Shown: positions 261 through 16,749, counted from the stretch's first letter. The stretch is 64,000 bases of DNA from a virus (IMGVR_UViG_2630968832_000009:3088-67087); one strand, 5' to 3'. Notes: a model not told the origin generated them from the sequence alone. Translations and numbers: made by a program.

Positions 261-326
261 GTTTATTGGAATTCTGATCGACCCAAGGATCATCAGTTTT
301 TATGCAATTATATCCGAGTCCACTTT

Positions 327-962: not shown

Positions 963-984
963 ACGAACACCTCATTTTCAAATG

Positions 985-1320
985 TTAATCTATGCTATCG
1001 ACTTCTCCAGTTTCCATCATTTTATGAATTTCAATTAATTGGTTTTTTAAAAAACGAACGCAGCCTGCATACAGCTTGTCCATTTCCTTTTTCGGAAACT
1101 TATTCTTTACCGCTTTTGCGTAATCTTCCCATGGCGAAAAATCACGTTCAAACAAACAACAACTTGTTTTCTCCAGACAAAAATCAAATGTTTGTGCCAA
1201 CACACCATAGCACAACGCAGAATGATCTGCCCGTACACGCGCGGCCCTCGGCAACGCTTTAACTTTGTCACAGCACTCATACAATGCTTTTCTGCTATAG
1301 CATGCTTTTTCAAATTTCAT
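985..1320 (-). CDS. Hypothetical early protein
   Basis: 111-aa ORF packed in operon. Confidence 0.65.
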   Translation of the reverse strand: MKFEKACYSRKALYECCDKVKALPRAARVRADHSALCYGVLAQTFDFCLEKTSCCLFERDFSPWEDYAKAVKNKFPKKEMDKLYAGCVRFLKNQLIEIHKMMETGEVDSID

Positions 1321-1329
1321 ACTGTATCT

Positions 1330-1782
1330 TTAATCCTCCTCGTTTTCTTCTTCCTGTCCAATGGTTTTGCGGATATATGCTGCAGCCATTTCGTACTCAT
1401 TCCATATCTTTCCCGGTACGAGATGTCTGTAAAGAGCTTCTGTTTCAAACAACATCTCAGCAATAAGCTGCCACTCCACGATATAGTTTGGGGATTCTCT
1501 GTCCAACGTGCCATCCGCTTTACGCTCAATAGTTGCCGGTGAAATCTCCTGAACAAAGTCGTCCAGATTTTCGTAGCTATAATAATGAAGGACATCTTCA
1601 ATTTCATCTTCCGAGTAATCGTTAATGTTGATGAATGCGTGGGCAACTGCAAACATATCAAGAACCCCACACACCTGCCACAGCTCAAAAACATTTCCTT
1701 TGAATTCGTCAAGATTACGCACATATTGTGCACAGTCATCATCAGTAAGAATCCATTTTGAAGATCTTATTTGTAAACTCAT
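1330..1782 (-). CDS. Hypothetical acidic early protein
   Basis: 150 aa, AAGGAG RBS. Confidence 0.7.
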   Translation of the reverse strand: MSLQIRSSKWILTDDDCAQYVRNLDEFKGNVFELWQVCGVLDMFAVAHAFININDYSEDEIEDVLHYYSYENLDDFVQEISPATIERKADGTLDRESPNYIVEWQLIAEMLFETEALYRHLVPGKIWNEYEMAAAYIRKTIGQEEENEED

Positions 1783-1824
1783 ATTGAATTTCTCCTTGTA
1801 TTAGATAACTGATAGTTGCTGCCA

Positions 1825-1852
1825 TTTCTGCCCTCGTGACCTCTGGGGCGGG
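1825..1852 (-). repeat. Intergenic GC-rich hairpin motif X, copy 1
   Basis: CCCGCCCCAGAGGTCACGAGGGCAGAAA, near-identical to 2339-2366. Confidence 0.8.
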
Positions 1853-1863
1853 CTGTTGGTTAT

Positions 1864-2094
1864 TTAGCGGGTGGGGTTGCGCTCCATAAATTTTCTTACG
1901 AATTCAAAGCACTTTTCCAAATTAGGGCTGCTATATATTGAATCCAGCCCGCCCGGAACTAATTCAAATTCCACTGAATAATTCCAATGAAAAATATCTC
2001 TAGCATCTATTACTTGCAAAAATTCTCCGCCATTAGTTTCCCATGCTTTAATCGTGCGTCTGCTCATATACGGATGATTTCTAATCACGTTCAT
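1864..2094 (-). CDS. Small hypothetical protein
   Basis: 76 aa, directly behind motif Y. Confidence 0.65.
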   Translation of the reverse strand: MNVIRNHPYMSRRTIKAWETNGGEFLQVIDARDIFHWNYSVEFELVPGGLDSIYSSPNLEKCFEFVRKFMERNPTR

Positions 2095-2134
2095 TTTCTT
2101 TTCTCTTTCTCCCCGTATGCCCGATAGGCCAGGC
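2088..2134 (-). repeat. Intergenic motif Y (hairpin + RBS + start codon), copy 1
   Basis: CCTATCGGGCATACGGGGAGAAAGAGAAAAGAAAATGAACG, near-identical to 2503-2551. Confidence 0.8.
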
Positions 2135-2142
2135 GCATTTTG

Positions 2143-2328
2143 TTACGCAAGCGGAAGCGTATCTACAACGGCTTTAAGCTGTTCCAACTGGCTACTAAGC
2201 CGCTCTATCTGATCGAGGTCTGCGGTAACATCGTACTTATCCTGCATACCCAACAGCTCATTTGTGAGTTGGCTCAGTTGCTTGGCGTAAACGTCCAAAT
2301 AATTGATATGGATTTTGATATTTTCCAT
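2143..2328 (-). CDS. Small coiled-coil hypothetical protein
   Basis: 61 aa from ATG 2328 (MENIKIHINY...), behind motif X. Confidence 0.6.
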   Translation of the reverse strand: MENIKIHINYLDVYAKQLSQLTNELLGMQDKYDVTADLDQIERLSSQLEQLKAVVDTLPLA

Positions 2329-2338
2329 CGTAAAACCC

Positions 2339-2366
2339 TTTCTGCCCTCGTTGCCTCCGGGGCGGG
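2339..2366 (-). repeat. Intergenic motif X, copy 2
   Basis: CCCGCCCCGGAGGCAACGAGGGCAGAAA. Confidence 0.8.
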
Positions 2367-2371
2367 TGTTA

Positions 2372-2509
2372 TTAACACGGGCTTTCAATGGTATAATCGC
2401 CTTCTCCAAACATTTCATCGCCGTATTCTTTCGCTTCTACATAGCTTTCAAAATCCTGCGGCATTTCATCAAGGTCATTCGGGAATACTGTACAAAACCA
2501 TTCGTTCAT
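2372..2509 (-). CDS. Small acidic hypothetical protein
   Basis: 45 aa MNEWFCTVFPND..., behind motif Y. Confidence 0.6.
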   Translation of the reverse strand: MNEWFCTVFPNDLDEMPQDFESYVEAKEYGDEMFGEGDYTIESPC

Positions 2510-2551
2510 TTTCTTTTCTCTCTTTCTCCCCGTCCGGCCGGTAGGACAGCC
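2503..2551 (-). repeat. Intergenic motif Y, copy 2
   Basis: GCTGTCCTACCGGCCGGACGGGGAGAAAGAGAGAAAAGAAAATGAACG. Confidence 0.8.
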
Positions 2552-2654
2552 TGGTTGATTTAAGCTTTCGTACCTACGCATTCTCTTTCACATAAGTAAC
2601 GATATCTTGGGAAATCGGTGCATACGTTCTAAAAGCTCTCTTTCCGGAAGCCTT

Positions 2655-3086
2655 TCATTTACACTGATCCATTTGTTCATTTTGTACACGAGTCCTCCAT
2701 TGCTTTGTCAAATATACACGTTTCAGCTCAACATCACCATCGATACAAGATAGCCGCCAAAACTGGATATACTCTTCGATTCCACATCCGTCATAAACGA
2801 AATTATCAAACTCGATTCCATCTAATTCGTTTCTGTGAAACGATATATCATGCAGACATGTACCATCTTCCCGCAGACAGAGAAGCCATGCATGATTCTT
2901 TCCGCTCTCAACGACGCGATTTAATGTATCAATGTCGTAGAAAATATCTCCTGCGTAGATTTCTGTAATTTTCGCTGCAAGCCTTACCATACGGTCAGAA
3001 ATATTCGAAATATTGCCAGTATCTGACCGCACAACAAATCGCGGATCATCGTCGTACGAGGAATAATTTCTGATTTCGTATTCCAT
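2655..3086 (-). CDS. Hypothetical protein
   Basis: 143 aa, abuts upstream gene. Confidence 0.7.
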   Translation of the reverse strand: MEYEIRNYSSYDDDPRFVVRSDTGNISNISDRMVRLAAKITEIYAGDIFYDIDTLNRVVESGKNHAWLLCLREDGTCLHDISFHRNELDGIEFDNFVYDGCGIEEYIQFWRLSCIDGDVELKRVYLTKQWRTRVQNEQMDQCK

Positions 3087-3983
3087 TCATGCCACCTCTT
3101 CCATTTCTGGCCAGTGCTCGGTCATGCCATTTTCTGTCACATCACTACCATAGAATCCGCCGCAGCTATCGATTTCTTCCCAGAAAATATCTGCATAAAG
3201 GGCCTCTTGTGGGCTAACTTCCTCGCCGGCCACTGTGCCTCCCAGAAATTTTTCAAGACGATACCAATACACATCACCATGAATATATTGATTATAAATA
3301 TCTACTTCTCCCCGAAGCACGCTCATAGCCGTTTCGAGATTCTTTTTATTGAATGCTCCGTACTCTTTTTCAATATCCTCTTTGGTAACATAGATAAAAC
3401 CAACTTGACCAGAATCCCATGAATCGCAAAAACTGCCAGTGCTCATCGTAATTCCCGAATGGTCATAGAGATACAAAGGCAGATAGAAAACTTTGTCCTT
3501 GAGAAGCCTCTTACAATCTTCAAAACCAAGATCTTCTATGATGTCATCCTCAACGTACCAACCACCTGAGCGAAGGTCTTCAATGTCACCTGTGTCATAT
3601 GTCTTATCAATGCACCATGACGCTTTTTGCTTATCCCCCAAGAAAGAAATATATCCCCAATAACAAAGCTCATAGCTTTCTTCGCCATCTTCATCAATCT
3701 CTTTCTGAAGCCTAACGCTCCCATCTCCGGATAGCGCATAAGCGAAAAGCGTATTTCTGTCAATATGCTCACGCACCATATCATGCCAGAAATCAATAGG
3801 TTCACTGTAATCGTGTTTGTCTCCGAGATTATATCTTCTATTCCAACACAGCATATGACCCAGTGGACTCCAATCGCGCGGCGAGTCAATCCAATCGTCC
3901 TGCCCTATTCGCAGCCTGTAATATGTACCGTCAGAACCTCGCGTCAAAAGGTTCTCGTCGAGATCTATGTATCTAAGGTTCAT
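3087..3983 (-). CDS. Conserved acidic phage/ICE early protein (LYLYDHSG...WDSGQVGFIY motif)
   Basis: 298 aa; motif recurrent in early regions of mobile elements; function unknown. Confidence 0.75.
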   Translation of the reverse strand: MNLRYIDLDENLLTRGSDGTYYRLRIGQDDWIDSPRDWSPLGHMLCWNRRYNLGDKHDYSEPIDFWHDMVREHIDRNTLFAYALSGDGSVRLQKEIDEDGEESYELCYWGYISFLGDKQKASWCIDKTYDTGDIEDLRSGGWYVEDDIIEDLGFEDCKRLLKDKVFYLPLYLYDHSGITMSTGSFCDSWDSGQVGFIYVTKEDIEKEYGAFNKKNLETAMSVLRGEVDIYNQYIHGDVYWYRLEKFLGGTVAGEEVSPQEALYADIFWEEIDSCGGFYGSDVTENGMTEHWPEMEEVA

Positions 3984-4509
3984 TTTTTAGTGCCTCCAAC
4001 TTTATAAATTCTTCGTAGTGAATACCCTTGTAAGACAGCTCAAATCTATCTGGATAACTCCAATCGTCACATTTTAAGTAGCCTTTTCCTTCAAGGAAAC
4101 GTATACACTTATCAAACTCAGCTCGATCGATTCCAATCGACTCCATAACTGGAAGCAAGGCATCGTCTCCAAATACCCATGTCTTACTTGAAGAGTGCTC
4201 AAAGTTATTTAATTTTTCCAAGACTCGAATACTTGTTCTATCAAGCACTTTTTTGTCGACTAAATCGTTTTCGCGTTCCTTTGTATTTGCTAACATAAAG
4301 CCACATTTTTCATGAGACGGGCCTTCGCTATATGCGAATTCTAGCTTTCCAAACTCAAATAATTTTTCAATTGCCTTTGTAACTTCTTCGAATGTAGATC
4401 CAATTGCAAACGCAAGATTACTAATTTCATTACTACAAAATCTAAAGATTCTTGTTTCTGCGTTGTACAATTGCATTTGCGTCAACAGCTTTTTTTCAAT
4501 CATATTCAT
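3973..4509 (-). CDS. Hypothetical protein, probable winged-helix domains
   Basis: 178 aa, C-terminal ...FDKCIRFLEGKGYL...LSYKG pattern; AGGAG RBS. Confidence 0.6.
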   Translation of the reverse strand: MNMIEKKLLTQMQLYNAETRIFRFCSNEISNLAFAIGSTFEEVTKAIEKLFEFGKLEFAYSEGPSHEKCGFMLANTKERENDLVDKKVLDRTSIRVLEKLNNFEHSSSKTWVFGDDALLPVMESIGIDRAEFDKCIRFLEGKGYLKCDDWSYPDRFELSYKGIHYEEFIKLEALKNEP

Positions 4510-4523
4510 GTCGGTCTCCTCCT

Positions 4524-4874
4524 CTACGCCGCATTGCTATGCTTTCCCATATAGTGCATATGCCTGCCATCAAACCGGAACAATTTGTAGAAACCAAACG
4601 GGGCAGCTACTGTTTCCATAAATTTTCTCGCTTCAAATTCAGTAGAAAACTCCACTGTATAAGTCGGATGGCTGACAAAGAAAACGCTTTTTTCTTTTGT
4701 CTCCACTTCTTCATCCTCATGCAGCTCATGTTTTACTGCACCGAGCAATTCATTAATGGTCGGACGCCCTGGAAGATCAAGTACTTCTTCAAGGAAGCTC
4801 TTAATAAAGCGCAATTCATTGTCTAAATACATCTCCGCGACATCATTGATGTCCCCATTAATTCGAATACACAC
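4524..4874 (-). CDS. Hypothetical protein
   Basis: 116 aa, AGGAGG RBS. Confidence 0.65.
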   Translation of the reverse strand: MCIRINGDINDVAEMYLDNELRFIKSFLEEVLDLPGRPTINELLGAVKHELHEDEEVETKEKSVFFVSHPTYTVEFSTEFEARKFMETVAAPFGFYKLFRFDGRHMHYMGKHSNAA

Positions 4875-4899
4875 AGTCGTTTCCTCCTAAAATTCACAT

Positions 4900-5433
4900 T
4901 TAAAAATCAATCGTTCCGATTCGTTCTGGTTTATAAACCTTCTCCCAGTGCCAACCATCATCGTACAAATTAGGTACTTTTGTCCGTTTAAAGTCTCGAA
5001 TGACTGTACTCATTCGTGCTTTACTCAATTCATTGAACACAAACTCAGCAGCGCAACGGATGTTGGATTCACTACAATGCTGTCCCCAAAAGCTATCTAT
5101 AAGCCAACCTTTTTTGGTCTCTTCCAAAGCTGCGTCCATTGAGTATTTCCCGTTTTTAATTGGTGTCTTGATATAGTAAAAAGGAAAGAACGGGTTATCA
5201 TCTACCTGGTAGTAGTAGTACACATCATTTAATACAAAACTAATGTACGAAGTATGTGTGACCTTGATCGGTTCAGTGTCCTTACAATTCCGGTCACTGA
5301 TAAAAGCCTGCCTTGTAGGCTTTACCCTGCCGCCGTGCTCTTTCACCAAACTTGCCAGTGCTGACATCATACGCGCCATGTTATAGTCGCAAGAACGAAG
5401 ATACAGCCGTTGATTTTCTTTTGAAACGATCAT
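4900..5433 (-). CDS. Hypothetical protein
   Basis: ATG 5433 with GGAGG RBS. Confidence 0.7.
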   Translation of the reverse strand: MIVSKENQRLYLRSCDYNMARMMSALASLVKEHGGRVKPTRQAFISDRNCKDTEPIKVTHTSYISFVLNDVYYYYQVDDNPFFPFYYIKTPIKNGKYSMDAALEETKKGWLIDSFWGQHCSESNIRCAAEFVFNELSKARMSTVIRDFKRTKVPNLYDDGWHWEKVYKPERIGTIDF

Positions 5434-5515
5434 ATTTGACCCTCCACTAAATATTTTGTTGATACTCAAACCTGTGATAGGGCTTTTATGCAGATGCCCT
5501 TCAGAACTGCTTTTT

Positions 5516-5737
5516 CTATACTCTTACAAACTCAGATAGATAAAAAATGTCGTCTCCGAGCCTGAAGAATATCTTCCCGGTGTGTCTTTCACGCTTCACA
5601 GGCACTGTCCAAAATCCACGTAAAAAGCCATTTTTTCGATAAGTTACCGTTACTTCCGACAATAGATGCTCACGATTCGTTTTGCAGCCTACGATTGTAA
5701 AAACACGTGTTCCCAGATTTAAAACCATATATATCAA
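5516..5737 (-). CDS. Small hypothetical protein
   Basis: 73 aa, AAGGAG RBS. Confidence 0.55.
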   Translation of the reverse strand: MIYMVLNLGTRVFTIVGCKTNREHLLSEVTVTYRKNGFLRGFWTVPVKRERHTGKIFFRLGDDIFYLSEFVRV

Positions 5738-5828
5738 CTCCTTTGGGGCGTTTTTTCTTTAGCCCGCCTTGTATTGACTAATTATAAGATTGCGATATTT
5801 GCCTGTCAATACTTTTGCCATTATAATG

Positions 5829-6686
5829 TCAAAAGATCAAACCACGTGTGGGCAGCTCCTGTACTTTCCGCTCCCCATATTGAGGCAGTTTATTGATGTA
5901 ATGCTCAATCACACTCGCCATTGCATTGCTGGGTTTACGATCGATATAGCATGCTCTTGCCATGTATTCAAACCGCTTCGGAGAACTTTGCGAAATGATT
6001 TTTACAATTTCTGTTCTAAGTTCATTCGGAGAAATGTCACAACGAGCCGTATAGACATAATTCAATGCCATAATAACCGATCTGCTATATGCTCCAGGCT
6101 CCATATGCCAGTTTGCTTCCCGAATAATTCTAAAGATCCACCGAAGTTCATCAGGCTCATTGTTAGTAATGGCAAGCGCAACACCTATCGCAGTCAACAC
6201 GCCGGCACTGTTCTTTCCACATGCCTTTTTGATCTTGATACCATATTCATCGCAGATATCACGCAAAAGCAACGCAGCCTTGCCACGTTCTTCACCGCTG
6301 GCACACGCCGCAATAAATTTGTCGTATTGCGTTAGTTTGGTTACATTTTCTTCTTGTGTTACAAACAGGTGCGCTTCATCTTCGTCTGTAAGACCTGTGC
6401 GAATATTGCAAAGCACATGTGTCTTACCAACCATAACGGCAGCACGCAAACGGTTGCCGCCGTCCCAAATATTAAAATGATCTCCTCGCTCACTCGCTTC
6501 CAAGTGGCCAGCTTTATTATCATCCCAATTCGATGCAATGTGAGCGACATGACGCCCTTGGTCACGCTGGTAAATTGGACTAAGTTCACACAGGTCAACG
6601 GGGATCAATGCAGTCTTGATACCGTTCCCTTCGGTGTGGGCGTTCATCATGATGGTTTCTACTCGGGCTTTGTTCTGCTTGTTCAT
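5829..6686 (-). CDS. ParB/Srx-like N-terminal domain protein
   Basis: YQR...IASNWD...IWDGGNRLRAA resembles the DGxHR ParB-like motif. Confidence 0.65.
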   Translation of the reverse strand: MNKQNKARVETIMMNAHTEGNGIKTALIPVDLCELSPIYQRDQGRHVAHIASNWDDNKAGHLEASERGDHFNIWDGGNRLRAAVMVGKTHVLCNIRTGLTDEDEAHLFVTQEENVTKLTQYDKFIAACASGEERGKAALLLRDICDEYGIKIKKACGKNSAGVLTAIGVALAITNNEPDELRWIFRIIREANWHMEPGAYSRSVIMALNYVYTARCDISPNELRTEIVKIISQSSPKRFEYMARACYIDRKPSNAMASVIEHYINKLPQYGERKVQELPTRGLIF

Positions 6687-6861
6687 GGTAATTCTCCTTT
6701 AAAATATGTATTTATTATGTATTTTTAATACTTACAGCAAAGCTGCAAGCATTTGCGGCACACAGAGATACAGGAGCATAACAGCTCCTACGATAACGCA
6801 GTTCTTTATAAATCTCTTGCGTTTCATTTTCTTTTATGCTCCTTTGTTCTGATTTTGGGTA

Positions 6862-6898
6862 TAAAAAGAGCGCCCTATCTTGTTAGATAGAGCGCTTT
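6862..6898 (-). terminator. Rho-independent terminator
   Basis: AGCGCTCTATC-loop-GATAGGGCGCT followed by a T tract on the minus strand. Confidence 0.65.
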
Positions 6899-6925
6899 AT
6901 GCGAAATCAAAGTATCAAATATTTA

Positions 6926-7156
6926 TCATTTCAAAAGCAAAATCACAAAAATTATAGCCAAACCAATCATTATAGAGGAAACCACTCTGAATAATGAGAC
7001 AACAGGCGATCCCAATTGCTTTTCCTCGTATTTTTTTGATGACTTTACTTCGTGTTTTCTCATCGGAGCAGATTGATTGATCCTATCAACGCTCTGCTTA
7101 TAGTGTACATAACCGTCAAGACCTGAGCCATAAAACCCAAAATCATTTTTGGACAT
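6926..7156 (-). CDS. Small membrane-anchored protein with N-terminal GxGLDGYVHYKQ motif
   Basis: 76 aa, C-terminal TM helix; N-terminus matches 47130-47300. Confidence 0.75.
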   Translation of the reverse strand: MSKNDFGFYGSGLDGYVHYKQSVDRINQSAPMRKHEVKSSKKYEEKQLGSPVVSLFRVVSSIMIGLAIIFVILLLK

Positions 7157-7286: not shown

Positions 7287-7562
7287 TTATTCAGCCTTGC
7301 GAAGATCTTTGAGTACAGCGGTGTGATTCATCACAACAGTTTCCAGCGTGCGCAGCCTGTCGCGCATGTCGTCGATCTGCGCGGCGCGGTCATTCGCCTT
7401 GTCCAGTTTTTCCGCAATATCAGTATACTGCTCAGCAATAAGGCTGATTTTGTGGTCTTGCTGTTCTACAAGCATGCGAGTGCGACGAACTTCTGTCTCC
7501 AGCTTTTCCTGGCCGGCCTTTAATTCACCCAACATCTGCAAAATCAATTCTTCGTTTTTCAT
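7287..7562 (-). CDS. Coiled-coil hypothetical protein
   Basis: MKNEELILQMLGELKAGQ..., AGGAG RBS. Confidence 0.7.
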   Translation of the reverse strand: MKNEELILQMLGELKAGQEKLETEVRRTRMLVEQQDHKISLIAEQYTDIAEKLDKANDRAAQIDDMRDRLRTLETVVMNHTAVLKDLRKAE

Positions 7563-7850
7563 TTGCTTCACTCTCCTGTGCTTGATATTATACCCCATGG
7601 CGAGAGGGGTTACAATTGGTCATTCTCACAAAGTTTTCCGAGCTACATTCAGTAGCTACAATTGAAGCCTACGATGGATTATGCTTAACAAATCATTTCA
7701 GCCACAAAAACGCATTTGAAATCCTCAAATATCGGGCAAAAATAGCGAAAATCAAAGATTAAAAACGGATTTTACGTTTTTATTATATAGCGCAGTATAA
7801 GACAAGCATTGGTGCACAACTCTTGACGGCTCCATTTCGTCGCCTTGGAT

Positions 7851-7879
7851 CAAAAAACGCCCCGCAAAGCAGAGCGTTC
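7851..7879 (-). repeat. Cassette repeat A (terminator part only)
   Basis: AACGCTCTGC-TTT-GCGGGGCGTT-TTTT, same hairpin as in repeats B and C. Confidence 0.85.
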
Positions 7880-7885
7880 ATTGCG

Positions 7886-8200
7886 TTAATCAAATTGTAG
7901 ACGTGATGCAATATCAGATGAACTATATAGCACACGCAGCACTATCACAGAGCTGTTTTCTATTGTATATATTATAGAGTAATTGTCGACTATCAGCTGC
8001 CTGACAACGTGTAATTGTGGGGCTAAGACAATTTGTTTGCAACGATCCGGTAAGGTCTCAAGGGATCGAATTTTCTCTGCAATCCGATCGTATTGCCGCA
8101 TTGCTGTTTCTGGTTCTTGGAAAGCTTTTGCTATATAATCATAGATTGAATTCATATCATCCAGTGCGAGGCTGGTGATTTCTACATTATACTGCTTCAT
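7886..8200 (-). CDS. parE: RelE/ParE-family toxin
   Basis: YNVEITSLALDDMNSIYDYIA...LETLPDR...RQLIVDNYSIIY...VLRVLY. Confidence 0.9.
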   Translation of the reverse strand: MKQYNVEITSLALDDMNSIYDYIAKAFQEPETAMRQYDRIAEKIRSLETLPDRCKQIVLAPQLHVVRQLIVDNYSIIYTIENSSVIVLRVLYSSSDIASRLQFD

Positions 8201-8502
8201 TTGTGGGTTTTATGAAAAGCTGCAAACGCCGCAGAAGCATTTTGCACTTTTCCTTGCTCCATTTCTTCATAGCCTGCTGTTATTGCCGCGCGAAGTTCCG
8301 AATTTGTCATATTATCTGCATTGATCTCTGCTGGTGCCTTTGGAAGTGTAATTGGGAACGGAATCCCGCCAGTAAGAGAAATTTGTCTCAGATACGCGTC
8401 TACTGCAGTTGCCATAGGAATACCTAGTTGTTTTAAAACATTTTCAGCCTGCTGTTTGACCTGTGGATTTACCCGTAGATTCATTGTAACTGACTTTTCC
8501 AT
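8197..8502 (-). CDS. relB: RelB/DinJ-family antitoxin
   Basis: MNLRVNPQVKQQAENVLKQLGIPMATAVDAYLRQISLTGGIPF; overlaps toxin start. Confidence 0.9.
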   Translation of the reverse strand: MEKSVTMNLRVNPQVKQQAENVLKQLGIPMATAVDAYLRQISLTGGIPFPITLPKAPAEINADNMTNSELRAAITAGYEEMEQGKVQNASAAFAAFHKTHK

Positions 8503-8522
8503 ATCATTCACCTCTCGCCACA

Positions 8523-8551
8523 AGTGTAACGCAAACAGCGTTACAAGTCAA
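8523..8551 (-). promoter_or_regulatory. SigA promoter and operator of relB-parE
   Basis: TTGACT-17-TACACT with dyad TGTAACGC-N5-GCGTTACA across the spacer. Confidence 0.75.
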
Positions 8552-8553
8552 GT

Positions 8554-8632
8554 ATCATCCAAAATATTTTTCACGCGCTGCGCAAAAAAACGCCCCGCAA
8601 AGCAGAGCGTTCTTCGTTATATTCAATTAATT
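8554..8632. repeat. Cassette repeat B (~80 bp)
   Basis: ATCATCCAAAATATTTTTCA..CAAAAAAACGCCCCGCAAAGCAGAGCGTTCTTCGTTATATTCAATT, shared with 9380-9461. Confidence 0.9.
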
Positions 8633-8756
8633 TCACTGGCACTAAACTCTGTAACTGGTTCAACCGTTACCTTCGTTTTTTTGCCTCCAACTCGCCCTTT
8701 TCATAGGCAATAGCTTCTTCTAGACCTAATGCAACTTTATCGAAAACGGTACTCAT
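8623..8756 (-). pseudogene. Truncated HigA-type (HTH-XRE) antitoxin N-terminus
   Basis: MSTVFDKVALGLEEAIAYEKGELEAK/(frameshift)TKVTVEPVTEFSASEI, then cut by repeat B before the HTH. Confidence 0.7.
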
Positions 8757-8768
8757 TAAGAAACCTCT

Positions 8769-9038
8769 CTACTTTTCATAATGCGTCCACATTCTGATGA
8801 TTTTTACTATCTTTTCATCTTCAAAAACTTGGTACACTATCCTATGCTGTCTGTTAATTCGTCTTGAGTACATTCCAAACAAATCACCAACCAATTTTTC
8901 ATATGACGGTGGGGTCTGATAAGGATTATTTCTGATTACCTCAATCAAAGCTTTTGCTTTGGTTGCAAGATTCGCTCTTTGAAGCTTTTGAATATCCTTT
9001 ACTGCATCTTTGGAATATACAATTTTATAACTCACCAA
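8769..9038 (-). CDS. yoeB: Txe/YoeB toxin
   Basis: NPYQTPPSYEKLVGDLFGMYSRRINRQHRIVY...MWTHY. Confidence 0.93.
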   Translation of the reverse strand: MVSYKIVYSKDAVKDIQKLQRANLATKAKALIEVIRNNPYQTPPSYEKLVGDLFGMYSRRINRQHRIVYQVFEDEKIVKIIRMWTHYEK

Positions 9039-9280
9039 ACCACCTCGTCTTCAGGAATACACTCGGACAGAGGCGTGTTCATTCCATCGATCAGCGTTTT
9101 TTTCAACTCTGCGTTTGACGACAATTCAAGCGTTGCCATAATACCATTATACTCTTCTTCACTTAGCAAGATAGCATTGCCGGATTTTGTAGAAATATTT
9201 ATTGGCTCATTGTATTTAATTGTATTCTCAAGCATAGCAAAAACATTTTTCCTGAATTGCGTAATATTTGTATTAAGCAT
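9032..9280 (-). CDS. yefM: Phd/YefM antitoxin
   Basis: NITQFRKNVF...PINISTKSGNAILLSEEEYNGIMATLEL. Confidence 0.92.
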   Translation of the reverse strand: MLNTNITQFRKNVFAMLENTIKYNEPINISTKSGNAILLSEEEYNGIMATLELSSNAELKKTLIDGMNTPLSECIPEDEVVW

Positions 9281-9306
9281 TATAGACACCTCTTTGTCAC
9301 AAAACA

Positions 9307-9356
9307 TGTACATTATCGTGTACATATATTATATGCACTCGCTTACGAAATGTCAA
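9307..9356 (-). promoter_or_regulatory. SigA promoter with YefM-type operators
   Basis: TTGACA-17-TATAAT followed by two TGTACA palindromes (9307-9312, 9319-9324). Confidence 0.85.
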
Positions 9357-9379
9357 CAAGCACTGTGGGTTTTCCAGGC

Positions 9380-9461
9380 ATCATCCAAAATATTTTTCAT
9401 GCGCTACATCCAAAAAAACGCCCTGCAAAGCAGAGCGTTCTTCGTTATATTCAATTTAATT
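9380..9461. repeat. Cassette repeat C (~80 bp)
   Basis: Near-identical to repeat B. Confidence 0.9.
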
Positions 9462-9664
9462 CCATGATAAGGTTAGCTTTCGCTTGTTTGATGCACAATC
9501 TTTCAGATATAAATTTATAAGCGTTTGATACGGGATGCGGCCTCTTCAGACTGACTTTTGAAATAGTCTATTGCTTCCGCATCAATGTTTATTGTGATTT
9601 GTCGTTTTAGCTGTTTGCTATATGGGTTTTTCCTTGCATTTGAAAAATCGTATTCTCGTTTCAT
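9456..9664 (-). pseudogene. BrnA-family antitoxin, 1-nt frameshift, no BrnT partner
   Basis: MKREYDFSNARKNPY...ITINID...YFK, continuing in shifted frame GIPYQTLINLYLKDCA...LSWN*. Confidence 0.8.
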
Positions 9665-9681
9665 GTTGTCGCCCACCATAA

Positions 9682-9960
9682 TCAACAATAAAATCTTATT
9701 TCTCCGTGATGATCTTGCCACTTTCTAACGATTTCAAACGATCTGGCTTCGATGACATCCATGATATCGGAAAGCATTCGTTCCGGAATTTTAGAATTAT
9801 TATGGGCTAGCAAACATTTTCCTTGTCGTGTAATCCAAACTTTTGTTGCATTTCCGGATGGAGTCCCCTGTGTGATATGAACGTGTACTGGTTCTAATGG
9901 ATAATTTTCATTTGACCAAAAATACACAAGATATGCCCCAACTCTAAATATTTGCGGCAC
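9682..9960 (-). CDS. DUF4160-family protein (putative HicA-like toxin)
   Basis: MPQIFRVGAYLVYFWSNENYPLEPVHVHI...ATKVWIT. Confidence 0.85.
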   Translation of the reverse strand: MPQIFRVGAYLVYFWSNENYPLEPVHVHITQGTPSGNATKVWITRQGKCLLAHNNSKIPERMLSDIMDVIEARSFEIVRKWQDHHGEIRFYC

Positions 9961-10222
9961 AGCCCATTCCTCCTTGCTTCGAGAACCGAATGATCAAATG
10001 TGCCGTACTTTCAAGGAGTTCCTGAAAATACTGAATTTCAGCGTCACTATATCCATCAACATTTCTCCACGCATATTCAGGCAAACGGCAATATGCATTC
10101 TTGAACCCCGTGCTCACTGGTGTCTCAATAAATACATCTACATGTTCTCCCGTGTCATTTTCAATTGGCTTTCCAAATGTGATTTCTGTGTTATCTGAAA
10201 GTGTCATAAATGGATAAATCAT
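9944..10222 (-). CDS. Partner of DUF4160 (putative antitoxin)
   Basis: MIYPFMTLSDNTEI...AYCRLPEYAW; overlapping two-gene operon. Confidence 0.7.
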   Translation of the reverse strand: MIYPFMTLSDNTEITFGKPIENDTGEHVDVFIETPVSTGFKNAYCRLPEYAWRNVDGYSDAEIQYFQELLESTAHLIIRFSKQGGMGCAANI

Positions 10223-10709
10223 ATTATTCGCCTCTTTTTTACACTTTTAGTACGTAGTGACGATTTCTAAAACACTAAAACAATCAATGCGTGAGCTTGT
10301 GACAGTCTATGTTTCTATATATATTATATTCATTTCATGCAATGAGGTCAATTGCAACATTAAATAATTGCCCCATCTAAATAATCCATTTCCCATTTTT
10401 CAAGCCCAGAGTGATTTTCATAAATACTTTTTGTACCATACAATTTGTAGCTATGCAAAAGATACTCCGGACTTTTACAATGCATATTGCTTGTGTTATA
10501 TCCTTTTGACACCTTGCATCTATGCGTTGTCAAACATTCAGAATGCGACGTTTGCGGCAATTCTTTTGTGCCGTAAAGAGGAACTATTGCAACATCATTA
10601 AAGAAACCGCAAGACAGAGTTTGCGGTCAAGGTGGTGTAAAAAACAAATTGTTATTTATACAAAACGCTTATATAAGATAATTCTGTTTTATGGTAAAAT
10701 GGTAGCGAG

Positions 10710-11333
10710 GTGATTGAAATGAGTAAGGGAGACGGACACGGTATGAGCTTTGTTTACGATTGGCAGCTGTTTACAGAAAAAAATCGTGAATATTCTCATC
10801 CTATTGGCCAATCAAAATGCAAAACATATTCTATTGAAGATTATGCAAAAGGATGCTTATATTATATCAAAGAAAATAGTTGTTGCGCATTGAATAAAAA
10901 GACTTGTGTTTGTTTTACAGATAATTCCAAGCTTTGCGAAAAACATGTGCGTGATACAATCATTTCTCAGCCCCCTAGAACAAATGACGGACACTATAAA
11001 AATAATTCTATAAGCAGTCAGAATTCGAGAAGCACTTCTTTAATTCCCACCAAAACAATTACATTGTCGAATCATAAAACTCATTCTAAAGATTATTATC
11101 CGAAAACATTCAAAGAGCAAAAAAGATATCTATTAAAAACAATTTTACATGTATATGTTTTAGTTGTTTGCATTATGTTCCCAGCAAAAAAAGTCCAACT
11201 TGTAACGCAGGATACGCCTTCAACAAGAGAAAGAAAACTTGTCCGATTTTTTCTTACCGAAAATCAGGCACAATTAGTTTGGGAGATAATTCAAATGCAC
11301 AAAAATGAGGTTGCATATCTTGAAATACAGTAA
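10710..11333 (+). CDS. Hypothetical protein (counter-oriented moron)
   Basis: 207-aa AT-rich ORF with upstream TGnTAAAAT. Confidence 0.55.
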   Translation: MIEMSKGDGHGMSFVYDWQLFTEKNREYSHPIGQSKCKTYSIEDYAKGCLYYIKENSCCALNKKTCVCFTDNSKLCEKHVRDTIISQPPRTNDGHYKNNSISSQNSRSTSLIPTKTITLSNHKTHSKDYYPKTFKEQKRYLLKTILHVYVLVVCIMFPAKKVQLVTQDTPSTRERKLVRFFLTENQAQLVWEIIQMHKNEVAYLEIQ

Positions 11334-11439
11334 CCGCAAAAAACAAACTGCCTTGCCATGAGGTAACGGATCAACTGATTGAATTGCTAACTTACAACCG
11401 GGTGCAACACTCAATATAGTGTAATGCAGTTACAAATCT

Positions 11440-11619
11440 TTATTTATTTTTCTCAATATAATCAATGATAAACTGTTTTAAAACTGAATAACGACTCACA
11501 CCGTTTTTCTTACAACATTCATCAAATTCCTTGGCTATTGAAATAGGTAGATTGGCTCCAACAAGTTTTCTTTGCTCTTTTTCCCTTGCGTATTCCTTAC
11601 TATAATTTCTTTCAGCCAT
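11440..11619 (-). CDS. Ribbon-helix-helix (CopG-like) protein, below ORF-track cutoff
   Basis: 59 aa MAERNYSKEYAREKEQRKLVGANLPISIAKEFDECCKKNGVSRYSVLKQFIIDYIEKNK. Confidence 0.7.
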   Translation of the reverse strand: MAERNYSKEYAREKEQRKLVGANLPISIAKEFDECCKKNGVSRYSVLKQFIIDYIEKNK

Positions 11620-11623
11620 ACTA

Positions 11624-11884
11624 TCACTTACTTATTTTAAATTCCTTTTTAATGATTTTCTTTATAAAATCCGAAGCAGATTTACATTGGTATTCTAAAA
11701 GCAGATCATCAAACAATTCGCCCTCTTGTGTTGTAAGAATTAAATTATATCGCCTTTTTAGTTGCTCTCTCTTTTTTTCTGCTTCTTCTCTCGACATAGC
11801 CATACTATCACCATCCAGTGATGATAGTATACCAAAATTTCCTGGCTTTTTCAATTCAATTGTATTGCACTTTTTCTTGCTCAT
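11624..11884 (-). CDS. Small protein with RHH-like C-terminus
   Basis: YNLILTTQEGELFDDLLLEYQCKSASDFIKKII. Confidence 0.6.
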   Translation of the reverse strand: MSKKKCNTIELKKPGNFGILSSLDGDSMAMSREEAEKKREQLKRRYNLILTTQEGELFDDLLLEYQCKSASDFIKKIIKKEFKISK

Positions 11885-12266
11885 GTGATATACTTATCCG
11901 CAAAGGGGCAGGCGGTTTATAGTGTCGCCCAGCACTTTTTGCTTATTGGCTTATGTATTCTATGGCAGCTTGCCAGCTTTCAAACTTTATTAGTTTGGTG
12001 CCACACCTTACATACCAATATTCCCCCATTGGGAAAGGCAATCATTGCGCCCCCTTTCGCCTGTGTAGATGCACAGGCTTTTTTGTTGCCACTCTGCATT
12101 TTTCATGCGGGCTTGTGACCGCCATTGGCTGCATTAGCTAGGGCGGCTTTTGCCGCCCCGGATTCGTTTTAGCCCTCTTTCTTTGCTCGATGGCAAGCCG
12201 CTTTCGAGGTCATCTTATACTTTCCACCCTCTTTGCGCGTTTTGATTGCCGAAAAAATTGCATTCA

Positions 12267-12992
12267 TCATGGTTTTTCGTTAAAGACTTGGATCGCGTCA
12301 TACTTGACATTTGCGGCACTGATTTTGATAAATTTGACATCCTCTTTCAGCATTTTCGGAAGCACACTCTCCGGACAGATTGCGGCACAAACCTTGCGCA
12401 ACTGTTCTTCCATTTTCGCAAGGCCAATACCCTCCATGCCATATTCTGCTTTTTTCTGTGCTTGCAGATCAGTAAGCGCAGGACTTACGATTTTGATATC
12501 ATCTGCGATAGATTGCGCAATGTTATCCAGGAACATTCTGAGGTACAGGTCAAATTTGCTGTCATTTGCAATAGTCACAGCTTTGTTTAAAATCGGATTG
12601 CCGTTTGCATCTAATTCTTTCGAGTTTTTAAGCTGAAAAGCACGGTTCAGGTCATAGAAATTGAGCTGCTTCTTTACGTCAGCAACTTTATATGCGCTTG
12701 TCTTTTTATCCAATACGATTCGTTTTGTCATATAGAACGGGTCATCAATGAATGCTGTAAACATCGCTTCCCGGTCCATTGTGAGAAATTCTGCGCACTT
12801 TGCGGTTTTGATTCGTCTAGTTTCTTCTTTTGCGGCATTATCTGCCAAATCCGTGACTTTTTCTCCTGCATTCAGCAGATCTGCCCAATCTTGCAGAGTA
12901 AGAGCATCAAATTGTGCTTTTTCTTCGTTGGAAAGCTCTTTTGCAGCGCGGATGTTCTCGATAATAGCGATGATATTCTTTTTGTTTTCCAT
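12267..12992 (-). CDS. Early hypothetical protein (probably extends to 12169 if one A is restored)
   Basis: Long Ala/Lys-rich ORF with AAAGGGG RBS; the shifted frame continues TMMNAIFSAIK...KKEG*. Confidence 0.75.
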   Translation of the reverse strand: MENKKNIIAIIENIRAAKELSNEEKAQFDALTLQDWADLLNAGEKVTDLADNAAKEETRRIKTAKCAEFLTMDREAMFTAFIDDPFYMTKRIVLDKKTSAYKVADVKKQLNFYDLNRAFQLKNSKELDANGNPILNKAVTIANDSKFDLYLRMFLDNIAQSIADDIKIVSPALTDLQAQKKAEYGMEGIGLAKMEEQLRKVCAAICPESVLPKMLKEDVKFIKISAANVKYDAIQVFNEKP

Positions 12993-13122
12993 GGTAAAAG
13001 CCCCTTTCAAATTGTAAAAAATAAAGCCCAGTGGTAAGCTGGGCTTGCGTACAAGAGTGTTTAGCACTCATAAAAAAGCACAAGATACTTGCAACTACTT
13101 CGGCACTTTGGCTGCAATAGCC

Positions 13123-13326
13123 TTACACGTAAGTATACGTTTTACCGCGTTTTGCTTTCTCTTGTGCTTTCGTTATCAATGTTAAACACATTGAATTATG
13201 TAGTTTTTCCGCAGGAATGACCGCTACTTGCTTACAGTCTCCGCAGGCATTCCCGCCACACTTGCCACAAGTAGTACCATGTGTTTTACTTGCGTTTCGC
13301 AAAGTGCGTTTATACTTTTCGTCCAA
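13123..13326 (-). CDS. Small Cys-rich protein
   Basis: 67 aa, CGKC...CGDC. Confidence 0.5.
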   Translation of the reverse strand: MDEKYKRTLRNASKTHGTTCGKCGGNACGDCKQVAVIPAEKLHNSMCLTLITKAQEKAKRGKTYTYV

Positions 13327-13843
13327 TACTCTTTTGTTTCAGTTCGTACCGTTGGACAGCGCCTATAAATAGCGCTTGCTTGCTACTTTACTACGGTTTT
13401 ACATCCGTTCACATCAGGCCACACTTTCCCTATGGACTTTACGGACATTTAACCGCTTTTTCTTGCAAACTATGGGAACAATCCACGTTGCAAGCTATAC
13501 AATGTGCGCGGGCGTCGCAATCTCCTTTATCCCTATGCCTTGCGGTCCCTTGTAAACAAGTTTCCTCGCCTATAATGACACATGTGTCATATAGTGGCAT
13601 TGCACTATTGATTTTTCAAGTTTCTGAAATTCCCTTGCACCGTCCCGGCGCGATATTGGAAACGACTTTTGACGGTATGGAAAGCACCGTCTAAAGATTG
13701 CTTTTTCCCGCAACCTATGTTTGAATATAACGCGCTCCGCGTGTCGTGGGTATGTGTCGCAAGGCGTGGGGCCCGTGCAGCTGTCCCGCGTGACCTCTCA
13801 TGCGTGGCGCTGTCCGTGGGCCGTGTCCCTCTTGACAATGCCT

Positions 13844-13885
13844 ATTTTAAACGTTGGTATTACCAATGTCAATTGGTATTCCCAA
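13844..13885 (-). promoter_or_regulatory. Early SigA promoter with two operator dyads
   Basis: TTGACA(13872-13867)-17-TAAAAT; TTGGTATTACCAA (13854-13866) and TTGGTATTCCCAA (13873-13885) flank the -35. Confidence 0.75.
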
Positions 13886-15166
13886 CATGCGCAATATAAA
13901 CAATATATAGGCGAAAACAGGCATAATACATTGTAAAAAACAAGCCAATTTACCCTATACCTTATTCGCGCGTGCGCGTATGCGCGTACTAATACGCGCG
14001 TATATGCGTATACGTGTGTATGTGTGGCGTTAGATGAACGCGCGCGCATATGGTGTGTTTTTACCGCAAAATGCGGTATAATCGGCGTGTATCTACTACA
14101 AGTGTAGTAGTAAATAGCAAAATGCAAAGTATGCTTTGCAAAATGGCCTCCCGCGCGCCGCGCGCAATCGCGGCATATGGTTTTAAATACTAGATAATAT
14201 TTTATTCATCATCAGATACAGGCAAAAAAAGCCGCAAAATTACCGTTATGCGGCTTTTGGCTTAGTAAAGCCATTTATGGGCATTTATGGGGGGGGATAT
14301 TTACATTTTTCAGGTATAAAAAATCACGCAAAAACCATTAAGTACCTCTCTCCCACACCCCAGATTATTTTCCATAATTTCCCACTATTTCCCCCATTTT
14401 TATTCGGGACTCGCTTCGGCAAAACCCTTGATCTAAGCCATTTTCCCCATTTCCATTCCTCTCAAAATTCACATTAATCACGCTAAAATCCTTTCAAAAA
14501 GCCTCAAAAACCGTTGAAAACACTACGTTTTCCCCGAATATCGCAAAAAAGCGCTAAAAAGTTCAAATCAAATCTCAAAATTTTTCCCTTCAATCCCTTC
14601 ACTTCTCTCCCCTCTCATTCTCACAAAACCGCATCCCAAAGCCATTTTTCCCTCTTATTTCCCTCCCATTTTCGGTATTATTTCCATATCCGAAAATCCT
14701 CTAAAATCGTGTCATTTCAGACAAAAATAACATTCATCCACGGGGTCCAGCATAAAATTCCGATATATAAGCATAAAAAACAGCAGGCCAAGCATGGTCT
14801 GCTGTTCTAAAAGCCAATATATTGTTTTCATATCTAAAACTGAAAAGTACAAGCTGCCATTATGCCAACTCATTAAAGTCTCATTTCTTTCTCTATTGGC
14901 ATGAACGGTATTCCCTTAAATCAATCCGTATCATTTTATATCATGTGCTATCCCTCATCCCCCCATCACAAGGGATTCCGTTTTTGCAGGATATCTTCTC
15001 GTTTGATCTACTGTCGTCCATTATAAAGAGCAGTTGGAAGATTTGTAAATTTGCTTCAATAATCAGAACCTTTTGTGAACACAATTATTATACTTGAATT
15101 TTTGAACATTCACTTTGGCTCTTGGGTGGACTTTGTTCCTCTTTTTCTTTCGATAATAAAAAGCTA

Positions 15167-15195
15167 TTGACATTCGGAAAGCAGAGTGGTATGAT
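15167..15195 (+). promoter_or_regulatory. SigA promoter of T-box leader
   Basis: TTGACA-17-TATGAT with TG extension. Confidence 0.85.
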
Positions 15196-15214
15196 AGCAA
15201 AAAATCAAACAGTC

Positions 15215-15482
15215 AAATGTGTTGATAAGGAAAAGTAGCGAGAGGAAAGCTTACAGAGAGCCGTGGGTTGATGGGACACGGCAACGGAACTTCCGCGAAA
15301 ATCCCCTTAGAACAGTCCGGGTGAAGAGCGCGCCCTACGCTTGCGTAAGCCGGAACGTGTAACATACGTTATCATGTTTATCATTGACGGATGATAATTG
15401 AGCGGCCGTTTTCGGACGGCAAATAGAGTGGTACCGCAGAGTTGAAACCTTTGTCTCTAATTTTAGAGATGAAGGTTTTTTT
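15215..15482 (+). ncRNA. T-box riboswitch, probable Ile (AUC) specifier
   Basis: AGTA/GAA loop E, AGAGA and GGTTGATGGGA distal motifs, GAAAATC specifier loop, AGAGTGGTACCGC T-box, terminator hairpin ending in a T run. Confidence 0.92.
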
Positions 15483-15546
15483 GTATTCTGAGGGAACAGC
15501 GCATTGGCTGAAAGATTCATCACTTCAAAATGAGGAGGAAAAACAA

Positions 15547-16479
15547 ATGAGAGTTTTGGAGAAAATAAGTGATTTTGTAGGAAAGTACATGGCAATCCTT
15601 GTCCTAGCCGTGGCTGCACTTGCCCTGTTCGTGCCACAGTCTGTAAGTTTCATTAAGACAAGCTACGTCAACACACTTCTGGGCATCGTAATGTTCGGTA
15701 TGGGGCTTACCCTGAAAGCCAGCGATTTTAAGGTTGTATTCAGCCGTCCCAAGGATATCATTATCGGCGCTGTTGCACAGTTCACCATCATGCCGCTGCT
15801 TGCCTTTGTTCTGACAAAGCTTTTCCAACTTCCGCCAGAGCTGGCCGTAGGCGTTATTCTGGTGGGCACATGCCCCGGTGGTACTTCCTCCAATGTTATG
15901 ACTTATCTTGCAAAAGGCGATGTGGCCCTGTCTGTTGGCATGACCGGCGTCTCCACCATTCTTGCACCGTTCCTGACTCCGCTTCTAACTAAACTGTATG
16001 CTGGACAGACGGTAGATGTAGATCTTCTGAGTATGTTCTTATCCATCGTAAAGGTTGTGATTGTTCCCATCGTACTGGGCTGCATCATCAATAAGCTGTT
16101 CTCCAGCTTTACCGAGAAGGTTACAAAGGTTCTGCCCCTTGTTTCCGTCACTGCCATCGTGGCCATCGTAGCCGCTGTTGTATCTGCCAACTCTTCCAAA
16201 ATCATGACCTGTGGTTTTCTTATCATGCTGGTAGTTGTTCTTCACAACTGTCTCGGTTATGCGCTGGGCTTCGCTGTGGGCAAGGTTCTGAAGCTTGACA
16301 TGAGTAAATGCAAGGCAGTTGCCATCGAAGTCGGTATGCAGAACTCTGGTCTTGCAACCTCTCTGGCGGCCACCCATTTTGCACAGTATCCGCTGGCTAC
16401 TATCCCTGGCGCTGTATTCAGCGTATGGCATAATATTTCCGGCGCTATCTTTGCAAACTTTATGACGTCCAAAGAGTAA
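15547..16479 (+). CDS. Bile acid:sodium symporter (BASS) family transporter, PanS/YocS-like
   Basis: MFGMGLTL, AQFTIMP, CPGGTSSNVMTYLAKGDVALSV, EVGMQNSGLA, FSVWHN. Confidence 0.93.
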   Translation: MRVLEKISDFVGKYMAILVLAVAALALFVPQSVSFIKTSYVNTLLGIVMFGMGLTLKASDFKVVFSRPKDIIIGAVAQFTIMPLLAFVLTKLFQLPPELAVGVILVGTCPGGTSSNVMTYLAKGDVALSVGMTGVSTILAPFLTPLLTKLYAGQTVDVDLLSMFLSIVKVVIVPIVLGCIINKLFSSFTEKVTKVLPLVSVTAIVAIVAAVVSANSSKIMTCGFLIMLVVVLHNCLGYALGFAVGKVLKLDMSKCKAVAIEVGMQNSGLATSLAATHFAQYPLATIPGAVFSVWHNISGAIFANFMTSKE

Positions 16480-16749
16480 TCTGGTAATGATAACTATTTT
16501 GCTGTTGACTTACAGTGCAGATAGTGATATTCTAGCCATGATAAGACTTTCACAAACGAAGTTTTGCGGTTGAATTAGGAGTAATTCCCCATGAAGAAAC
16601 CTGCTTGCTTTAGCTCTGGCGGCTGTGGCTGGCGCAACTTCTTCCCGCGAGTCCGTGAAAGCGCTGATGGCAGCTGTTGAGAAGCAGGCCAAAGCTGGCA
16701 ATACGGAAGTTGTTCTCGTAGATAATGCGAAATAACTTCAACTTTTAAG

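Follow-up and report, generated by a model that had tools for sequence, protein, structure and literature searches.

A moron is a self-contained accessory gene unit of a phage, with its own promoter and terminator, and among integrons the Vibrio superintegrons hold toxin-antitoxin (TA) cassettes. Here we describe an array of TA cassettes at positions 7851-10222 of a 64,000-nucleotide stretch of viral DNA (IMGVR_UViG_2630968832_000009:3088-67087), the whole of which is hereafter called the window. The locus is closest to phage morons and to prophage cargo hotspots such as those of P2 and P4 (PMC9122126). As in those systems, self-contained units with TA or defence-type cargo occupy one fixed slot between conserved genes of a phage-type backbone, and their content varies among close relatives. 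Here, however, several TA operons stand in series. The unusual feature of the locus is the reiterated linker of about 88 nt between them, composed of a terminator and a gene-end remnant. This linker makes stacking possible; it has undergone gene conversion and lies at the borders of cassette-sized indels. For temperate phages in general, PMC3945230 describes exchange across short conserved stretches that flank unrelated DNA, and phage genomes that are usually without repeats. At this locus, in contrast, the conserved stretches are repeated within one genome, which allows unequal exchange and with it stacking and deletion. We favour, with moderate confidence, a cargo slot with a duplicated linker at which homologous and microhomology-mediated recombination stacks TA cassettes and swaps them.

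The array also resembles an integron in its co-oriented small cassettes, its TA cargo, the hairpin-containing repeat between cassettes and a cassette number that varies among relatives. A preliminary description of this DNA, made from the sequence alone, had proposed an integron-like capture device. This part of the description is not supported. The genome lacks the integron integrase IntI (TIGR02249): its top-scoring match reaches 54.4 bits where the cut-off is 265, none lies at the array, and 14 control genomes give similar sub-threshold matches. The repeat is a Rho-independent terminator in which only a stem of 10-14 bp forms; its left and right parts (L and R, see below) do not pair, so that an attC-like fold is absent. 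By eye, the ATATAAC in L is one base off the attC core RYYYAAC, and no GTTRRRY follows it on that strand. Integron cassettes are mostly without promoters and are read from a common Pc, with attI standing first; here every cassette has its own promoter, there is no attI or Pc, and the order of shared cassettes is fixed.

The cassettes and their linker

All genes of the array are on the minus strand and form three co-oriented modules. Module 1 contains a gene that we call X, a DUF4160 gene and a frameshifted brnA gene (brnA*), module 2 contains yefM-yoeB and a fragment of a helix-turn-helix (HTH) antitoxin gene, and module 3 is relB-parE (Table 1). A 27-nt terminator core follows all three, in agreement with the earlier statement that each module ends in the same repeat. 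A profile search of the array genes gave scores above cut-off for YoeB, ParE, RelB and PhdYeFM. Promoter-like sites precede all three modules and palindromic operators precede yefM and relB, so the claim that these two operons keep their own promoter and operator is borne out. With an adjacent antitoxin and toxin of matching families behind a promoter and a palindromic operator, modules 2 and 3 are predicted to be type II TA operons.

The linker has three parts. L is 17 nt long (AATTGAATATAACGAAG), the T core 27 nt (AACGCTCTGCTTTGCRGGGCGTTTTTT) and R about 36 nt, ending in GCGCATGAAAAATATTTTGGATGATGC. Copies B and C, previously noted as near-identical, hold all three parts and agree in 80 of 91 aligned columns; copy A shares the core only. 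The L-T part of B and C is 94% identical over 52 nt, and the stretches of perfect identity are 27 nt (T, A versus B) and 32 nt (L-T, B versus C). When up to one mismatch was allowed, the T core gave three matches in the window and none in any of 100 shuffles, and the L-T and R probes gave two window copies each. In the whole 4.1-Mb genome T has three copies, all at the array, and R has two; a genome search that tolerated up to 3 mismatches in 24 nt found no further R-like site. T is predicted to fold as a hairpin of 10-14 bp followed by U7, with a centroid energy of -17.7 to -20.5 kcal/mol. The hairpin comes from the fold prediction; the terminator scan did not list it. R contains an AT-rich, 20-nt imperfect palindrome, CATGAAAAATATTTTGGATG.

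The origin of R is apparent from one of the related metagenome loci (designated by L numbers and described below). In L013, the DNA upstream of yefM is the remnant of an open reading frame (ORF) that ends in SYKLYGDVNKSYSDYLDVAHEKYFG and a stop codon, and its last 36 nt or so are R. This remnant aligns to residues 149-194 of the 196-aa protein Z (35% identity, pairwise E-value 7e-5), whose gene borders the array upstream. Because the remnant ends in R and aligns with Z, R is the severed 3' end, about 36 nt long, of a diverged Z allele, and the linker would be a composite scar. A search for a longer protein with an R-type C-terminus found none, which is weak evidence, and two borderline matches of the 66-aa remnant (E-value about 0.003) were not used. 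Two other roles for R were considered and rejected. Its A/T-rich part is inconsistently placed for an UP element, lying 10-23 nt upstream of the -35 hexamer at B and 31-44 nt upstream at C, and a mini-ORF within R (MKNILDD...) lacks a convincing ribosome-binding site.

The repeat appears confined to this lineage in the collections searched. Repeat B matched 7 of 400 genomes of the same family, always over 21-32 nt and with E-values of 2.5e-4 to 9.6e-4, and none of these is a real copy. Exact L-T and R patterns occur neither in IMG/VR nor in a species-genome collection of 185,579 genomes. Against phage and plasmid records the array region gave gene-level matches only, at 68-79% identity, and Rfam gave no match inside the array.

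Cargo and junctions in related loci

A metagenome scan with the T core identified 16 related loci on 15 contigs (L022 and L024 belong to one contig). Twelve contigs cover at least two cassette positions and make up the informative set; L018, L027 and L028 reach one edge only. Most relatives are 96-100% identical to the window and thus represent one lineage, not independent inventions. Public runs from seven studies contain most of the 64-kb stretch.

Eight of the 12 informative contigs (L014, L016, L019, L021, L022/L024, L023, L025 and L026) keep the window's three cassettes in the same order. Module 1 is missing from L013 and relB-parE from L015. L020 has an additional phd-parE pair upstream of X (PF02604 38.9 bits, PF05016 25.4 bits), of which the window keeps a scar made of the pair's promoter and the last parE codons. 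L017 contains other cargo, relB-yafQ, relB-yoeB and an AAA ATPase gene, still joined by R and T; this cargo occupies the corresponding site, and the coiled-coil genes that follow the array in the window follow it too. The variable cargo lies between flanks that are 96-100% identical. Cassette number or content therefore differs in 4/12 contigs, and the order of shared cassettes is identical in all 11 contigs with at least two of them. Variation in both number and order had been anticipated; the first was found, the second was not. Fixed content among relatives, named in the preliminary description as evidence against its proposal, was not seen.

Several breakpoints coincide with the linker. 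L015 and the window differ by exactly one unit, from the T of copy B to the T of copy A, with the join inside the T core. The last cassette is closed by the T core in both the window, where parE precedes it, and L017, where another yoeB does, and backbone flanks come next. L017 also has a second, different terminator next to R, and the point of contact is within 1-2 nt of that between T and R. L021 is 99.7% identical to the window over 10650-8770 and 91.8% identical over 8643-7851, the switch falling at repeat B. Of the proposal that the repeat edge is a recurrent capture and recombination junction, the recombination junction is supported, with differences bounded by repeat pieces in L015 and L017, and the integron-like capture is not.

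The linker copies also exchange sequence. Between the T-run and AGCGCATG lies a short segment that occurs in four forms, GGATGT, GGACGT, GGTGG and GCGC. Position C has one of the first three. Position B has GCGC in the window and in 8 of the 10 metagenome contigs that cover it; L014 has GGATGT there and L020 has GGACGT. Junction forms of B and C are thus exchanged in these two contigs, and we therefore conclude that gene conversion has occurred between linker copies. A four-gamete test found all four combinations of presence and absence of brnA* and the HTH fragment: both are present in the window, L014, L015, L016 and L022, the HTH fragment alone in L019, brnA* alone in L021, and neither in L020, L023, L025 and L026. 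Minimal pairing lengths are given as 23-27 nt for Red-beta and 31-34 nt for RecA in PMC3945230, and the perfect stretches of the linker, 27-32 nt, are near these values.

The two orphan antitoxin genes show a different kind of change. brnA* has been lost by internal deletion in 5 of the 11 contigs with module 1, and the other 6 share its frameshift. Eleven contigs reach the end of module 2. Five of them have lost the HTH fragment through a deletion that spares its last 14 nt or so; of the remaining 6, four keep it in frame and two have it frameshifted. In the window its frameshift lies in an A-run near 8675, where three of four runs have one extra base. Together with the phd-parE scar (10296-10284), these differences are plain internal deletions away from the repeat. 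As the sequence reads, the orphan antitoxins are decaying scars, one of the two roles first suggested for them.

Both orphans end at a repeat edge. Two metagenome proteins 95-98% identical to the HTH fragment run on as SEIKNIRNS, where the fragment ends in SEIN and a stop. The HTH_3 domain of the intact 104-aa relatives begins at residue 43, so that the fragment is cut at the domain start. An antitoxin remnant cut at the edge of repeat B, as first described, is confirmed. The matching statement about brnA, that its stop codon falls at the edge of repeat C, holds for the original frame, now shifted, which reads IPYQTLINLYLKDCASNKRKLTLSWN up to a TAA at 9458-9456, the left edge of the repeat; frame 1 ends early, at a stop at 9515. 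The Pfam BrnA match of this gene is below threshold (20.1 versus a cut-off of 26.1 bits), and its C-terminal frame, scanned alone, has no Pfam match. An Agathobacter rectalis record has an annotated CopG-family antitoxin gene behind the gene for a BrnT toxin, and the DNA of brnA* is 70% identical to this antitoxin gene. Because this relative follows a BrnT gene, brnA* is an orphan without its toxin partner: the gene is frameshifted and the one upstream of it encodes DUF4160, not BrnT. At the left edge of the linker, the HTH fragment ends with GAAATTAA before TTG and brnA with GGAATTAA before ATTG, and 7 of 8 bases match.

How the array may have been assembled

In the recombination scenario that we favour, the slot would extend from Z upstream to a backbone terminator, T, downstream, and relatives would fill it with different TA operons. 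Self-regulated type II operons would be stacked there in series, each insulated from its neighbours because it has its own promoter and operator and an intrinsic terminator. L-T would once have been the 3' untranslated end and terminator behind brnA. The joint between T and R would have been made once, by an illegitimate join of the T-run to the end of the Z allele, most economically when the slot was duplicated in tandem or when two phages that differed in cargo underwent unequal exchange, and copied afterwards. At the left edge, the HTH gene may have been cut at GAAATTAA and joined by microhomology to GGAATTAA of brnA. Homologous recombination would then add, remove and swap cassettes among co-circulating variants, and gene conversion would homogenise the linkers, with exchange acting between linker copies and within near-identical cassettes. 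RecA or a phage single-strand-annealing recombinase could act. The linker may have a twofold role: it would shield the autoregulated operons from one another and supply the homology that unequal exchange and conversion need. Small microhomology deletions would meanwhile be clearing the orphan antitoxin remnants. The TA pairs likely stabilise the element or exclude other phages. What the sequences show directly is the layout of the array, how relatives differ, where they break and how junction types are mixed; the succession of events, the enzymes and the role of the TA pairs are deduced.

Several points weigh against this scenario. Two different terminators, T and that of L017, meet R within 1-2 nt of the same position, which a random illegitimate join is not expected to do twice; microhomology between the T-run and TTTGGATG is a putative explanation. 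For RecA, 27-36 nt of perfect identity is barely long enough, and recombinases of the Red-beta, RecT or Erf type families were not seen among the ORFs at 1-7000. Logan contigs of all four runs inspected show even depth, with the repeat at double depth, and neither a recombination intermediate nor a cassette-skipping joint, contigs being an assembly in which rare forms are hidden. The relatives were ascertained by the T core, so that arrays without T are invisible, and repeat-bounded indels cannot be polarised, which makes cassette loss and gain interchangeable.

Among the alternatives, site-specific tandem accretion survives best, and we consider it unlikely. Integrase-less units would insert in series at an att site in the 3' end of Z, with an enzyme supplied in trans, for instance the tyrosine recombinase encoded at 17909. 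L-T-R would be an attP-like joint, with L-T as the P arm, a crossover around TTTGGATG and R as the P' arm. The likeness to integrative elements and cis-mobilisable elements (CIMEs) is that a remnant of the target gene's 3' end, here R, is repeated after the units, beside a terminator; R could then be the displaced gene end found at the attR of gene-end integrators, and its palindrome, CATGAAAAATATTTTGGATG, the core site. The direct L-T-R copies that flank yefM-yoeB and the meeting of two terminators with R at nearly the same nucleotide are also consistent with this. Judged by eye, the residues R, H-x-x-R, H and Y are retained in the 17909 ORF and succeed one another as expected; the ORF matches PF00589 with 32.6 bits. 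Unlike accreted elements, however, the units here are of about 0.75 kb and without integrase, and their arms differ. R flanks the yefM-yoeB unit but not the first and last ones: R is missing to the left of module 1, the final cassette is closed by T alone, without a remnant, and the three alternative flanks beyond it share nothing with R. In L017, the first cassette lacks L and ends in another terminator. The array has no recombinase gene beside it. The recombinase first put forward as a candidate enzyme is encoded 8.4 kb off, past a T-box-regulated gene, and its surroundings contain neither L nor T nor R; nor is there a further copy in the genome, and so no attP, attB or partner site. None of the 185,579 species genomes or IMG/VR entries holds a linker copy. 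Finally, the order of shared cassettes is fixed in 11/11 contigs with at least two of them, and junction variants move between B and C, as in homologous exchange.

The next alternative, likewise unlikely and ranked behind accretion, is that the repeat is a passive duplicated terminator, the by-product of one local duplication, and that the loci differ by independent deletions and illegitimate replacements. The phd-parE, brnA* and HTH-fragment differences are indeed plain deletions away from the repeat, eight of the 12 informative contigs have the same three cassettes, and the repeat is found nowhere outside the lineage. This account does not predict an indel bounded exactly by two T cores (L015), junction types swapped between B and C (L014 and L020), an identity switch at repeat B (L021) or different TA pairs between which R and T persist as joint and end (L017). 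It is improbable, in our view, that L-T-R acts as a genuine site of recombination; the terminator hairpin, fused to the cut end of Z, would then be the joint where integrase-less TA cassettes enter and leave through a phage or host recombinase supplied in trans.

Modules bounded by dif sites are a further system with many TA pairs, built of small modules with short repeated sites that are shuffled among related replicons (PMC6449649, PMC13141974). Here, in contrast, no second dif-like site was found in the genome, and the host element is phage-derived, not a Rep_3 plasmid. Also, all repeats are direct, whereas dif modules are bounded by 28-nt XerC/XerD sites in alternately inverted orientation. 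That host XerC/XerD move the TA modules at a dif-like palindrome in R, as in Acinetobacter plasmids, is very improbable: R has an AT-rich imperfect palindrome, TA pairs are frequent dif cargo and the 17909 protein matches XerC (25.4 bits) and XerD (17.8 bits) weakly, but these scores are far under cut-offs of about 330 bits, R has no further genomic match (up to 3 mismatches in 24 nt) and so apparently mimics no chromosomal dif, and no R follows the last cassette.

Surroundings of the array and its meaning for gut phages

The favoured scenario places the slot in a phage-type backbone, on a stretch carried by a gut bacterium. To the right of the array, the window contains genes for terminase (at 29042), portal and tape measure proteins. 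To its left are PHROG-type genes, including a ParB-like nuclease gene that is 99% identical in an IMG/VR viral contig; that contig stops about 240 nt before the array. Between about 260 and 16635, the metagenome relatives follow the window in the same gene order apart from several replaced segments. On this basis the array is treated here as part of what appears to be a phage-derived mosaic region.

Table 1 Features of the array and its borders, listed from the upstream to the downstream side
Feature	Positions	Strand	Evidence or remark
gene Z 3' remnant, 218 nt	10360-10577	-	upstream border of cargo slot
module 1 promoter-like site	10323-10351	-	11/12 consensus positions; in L020 precedes phd-parE, then X-DUF4160
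parE-like deletion scar, last codons GWLTH and stop	10284-10296	-	whole phd-parE (610 bp) here in L020
X, 92 aa, first gene of module 1	9944-10222	-	unnamed family
DUF4160 protein, 92 aa	9682-9960	-	PF13711 55 bits, cut-off 23
brnA*, frameshifted orphan CopG/BrnA-like antitoxin gene	9456-9664	-	Pfam BrnA, DNA identity, frame reading
repeat C (L-T-R)	9375-9464	-	L 9456-9440, T 9439-9413, R about 9411-9375
yefM-yoeB promoter, TTGACA-17-TATAAT	9328-9356	-	12/12 consensus positions
yefM-yoeB operator-like half-sites, two TGTACA	9306-9324	-	palindromic
yefM antitoxin gene	9032-9280	-	PF02604 30.7 bits, cut-off 29.8
yoeB toxin gene	8769-9038	-	TIGR02116 97.4 bits, cut-off 51.8
HTH-antitoxin fragment	8623-8756	-	first 43 codons of 104-aa HTH_3 antitoxin
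repeat B (L-T-R)	8549-8636	-	L 8628-8612, T 8611-8585, R about 8583-8549
relB-parE promoter-like site	8523-8551	-	9/12 consensus positions
relB-parE operator-like palindrome, TGTAACGC-N5-GCGTTACA	8525-8545	-	palindromic
relB/dinJ antitoxin gene	8197-8502	-	TIGR02384 52.8 bits, cut-off 45.65
parE/relE-family toxin gene	7886-8200	-	PF05016 48.2 bits, cut-off 23
repeat A, T core alone	7852-7878	-	downstream border of slot
variable flank type 'a'	7681-7851	-	relatives have type 'b' or 'c'

At the upstream border, Z is a remnant in the window, and a full-length, 196-aa Z ORF lies just upstream of the array in six contigs (L015, L018, L019, L022, L023 and L026). Z has no Pfam match and no relative in IMG/VR; the 400 genomes of the family gave one weak match only (E-value 7e-4, with internal stops). 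The first genes of the array had been described as a DUF4160 pair. This needs correction, as there is one DUF4160 gene only and X matches no family in Pfam, NCBIfam or PADLOC. In the Atlas, X falls in clusters of about 90-aa hypothetical proteins without a Pfam family (score 0.96). DUF4160 genes are usually preceded by a DUF2442 partner, and X occupies that place here; X may be an unnamed family of DUF4160 partners. PADLOC has nothing for DUF4160 or Z.

A second mosaic zone is located just upstream of the array, at 10577-14112 of the window (L018 326-3590, L019 2531-5198, L023 2504-5728). In these three loci the ribbon-helix-helix (RHH) genes and a 266-aa ORF of the window are swapped for other DNA, which encodes full-length Z, two or three small HTH repressor-like proteins and an Ala-rich protein of 222-229 aa. 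Within the zone, a 790-bp segment (10651-11441) contains a plus-strand, 207-aa Cys-rich ORF without a family (10710-11333). It lies between two copies of the 8-nt sequence ATAAATAA, directly past the stop codon of an RHH gene. The segment is missing from L013, L014, L016, L020, L021 and three of four runs, and present in L025 and run X5. This pattern suggests that a small piece of DNA was inserted and its target duplicated.

Further upstream, a T-box leader (RF00230, 128 bits) stands directly before a 345-aa membrane-protein ORF at 15442-16479 (region 15213-16479), which we take to resemble transporters of the bile-acid:sodium symporter type. This region sits between phage-like regions, and 14112-16635 is 96-97% conserved in L016, L019 and L023. 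The ORF at 17909-18826 encodes a divergent tyrosine recombinase of 305 aa, whose catalytic residues are apparently present by eye. A second recombinase, of 313 aa, is encoded on the same contig outside the window (C8:87092-87334).

At the downstream border, three alternative flanks are found beyond the last T. Two of them, types b and c, are allelic versions of the 5' region and promoter that belong to the L017 ATPase gene; the window and L015 have the third flank, unrelated to this gene. In L017, the gene (1538-2761) follows the last terminator and encodes a 407-aa AAA ATPase (AAA_16, ATPase_2, KAP P-loop), for which PADLOC gives weak P-loop matches only. In L013 (1969-2128), L016, L019, L020, L024 and L027, 160 nt of its promoter and 5' region are all that is left. 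The coiled-coil gene at 7287-7598 is present as a diverged allele (82-83% identity) in L016 and L017, and in L017 it is followed by another coiled-coil ORF, of 83 aa (3343-3594). Relatives have 166 additional nt between 7263 and 7269. About 520 bp, 3997-4518, are missing from L015, L016, L019, L023 and L024, where the alignments jump from 4518 to 3997.

The locus presents no new class of genetic element, unless the site-specific accretion holds. If L-T-R were indeed a recombination site served in trans, the array would be an integron-like platform for addiction and defence modules in a Firmicute-type gut phage, with a different site and enzyme. Under the recombination scenario that we favour, the locus shows how the cargo slot of a temperate phage that starts with one TA operon can come to hold three or four in series. 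A single illegitimate joint, of a terminator to the end of a gene, turns into a linker that can be used again and that provides both insulation and homology for unequal exchange. Thirteen natural variants at one locus display gain or loss of cassettes, allele replacement, gene conversion and orphan antitoxin decay. They form a natural series for asking whether 27-36 nt of homology suffices for cassette traffic and how defence and addiction modules accumulate in gut phages.

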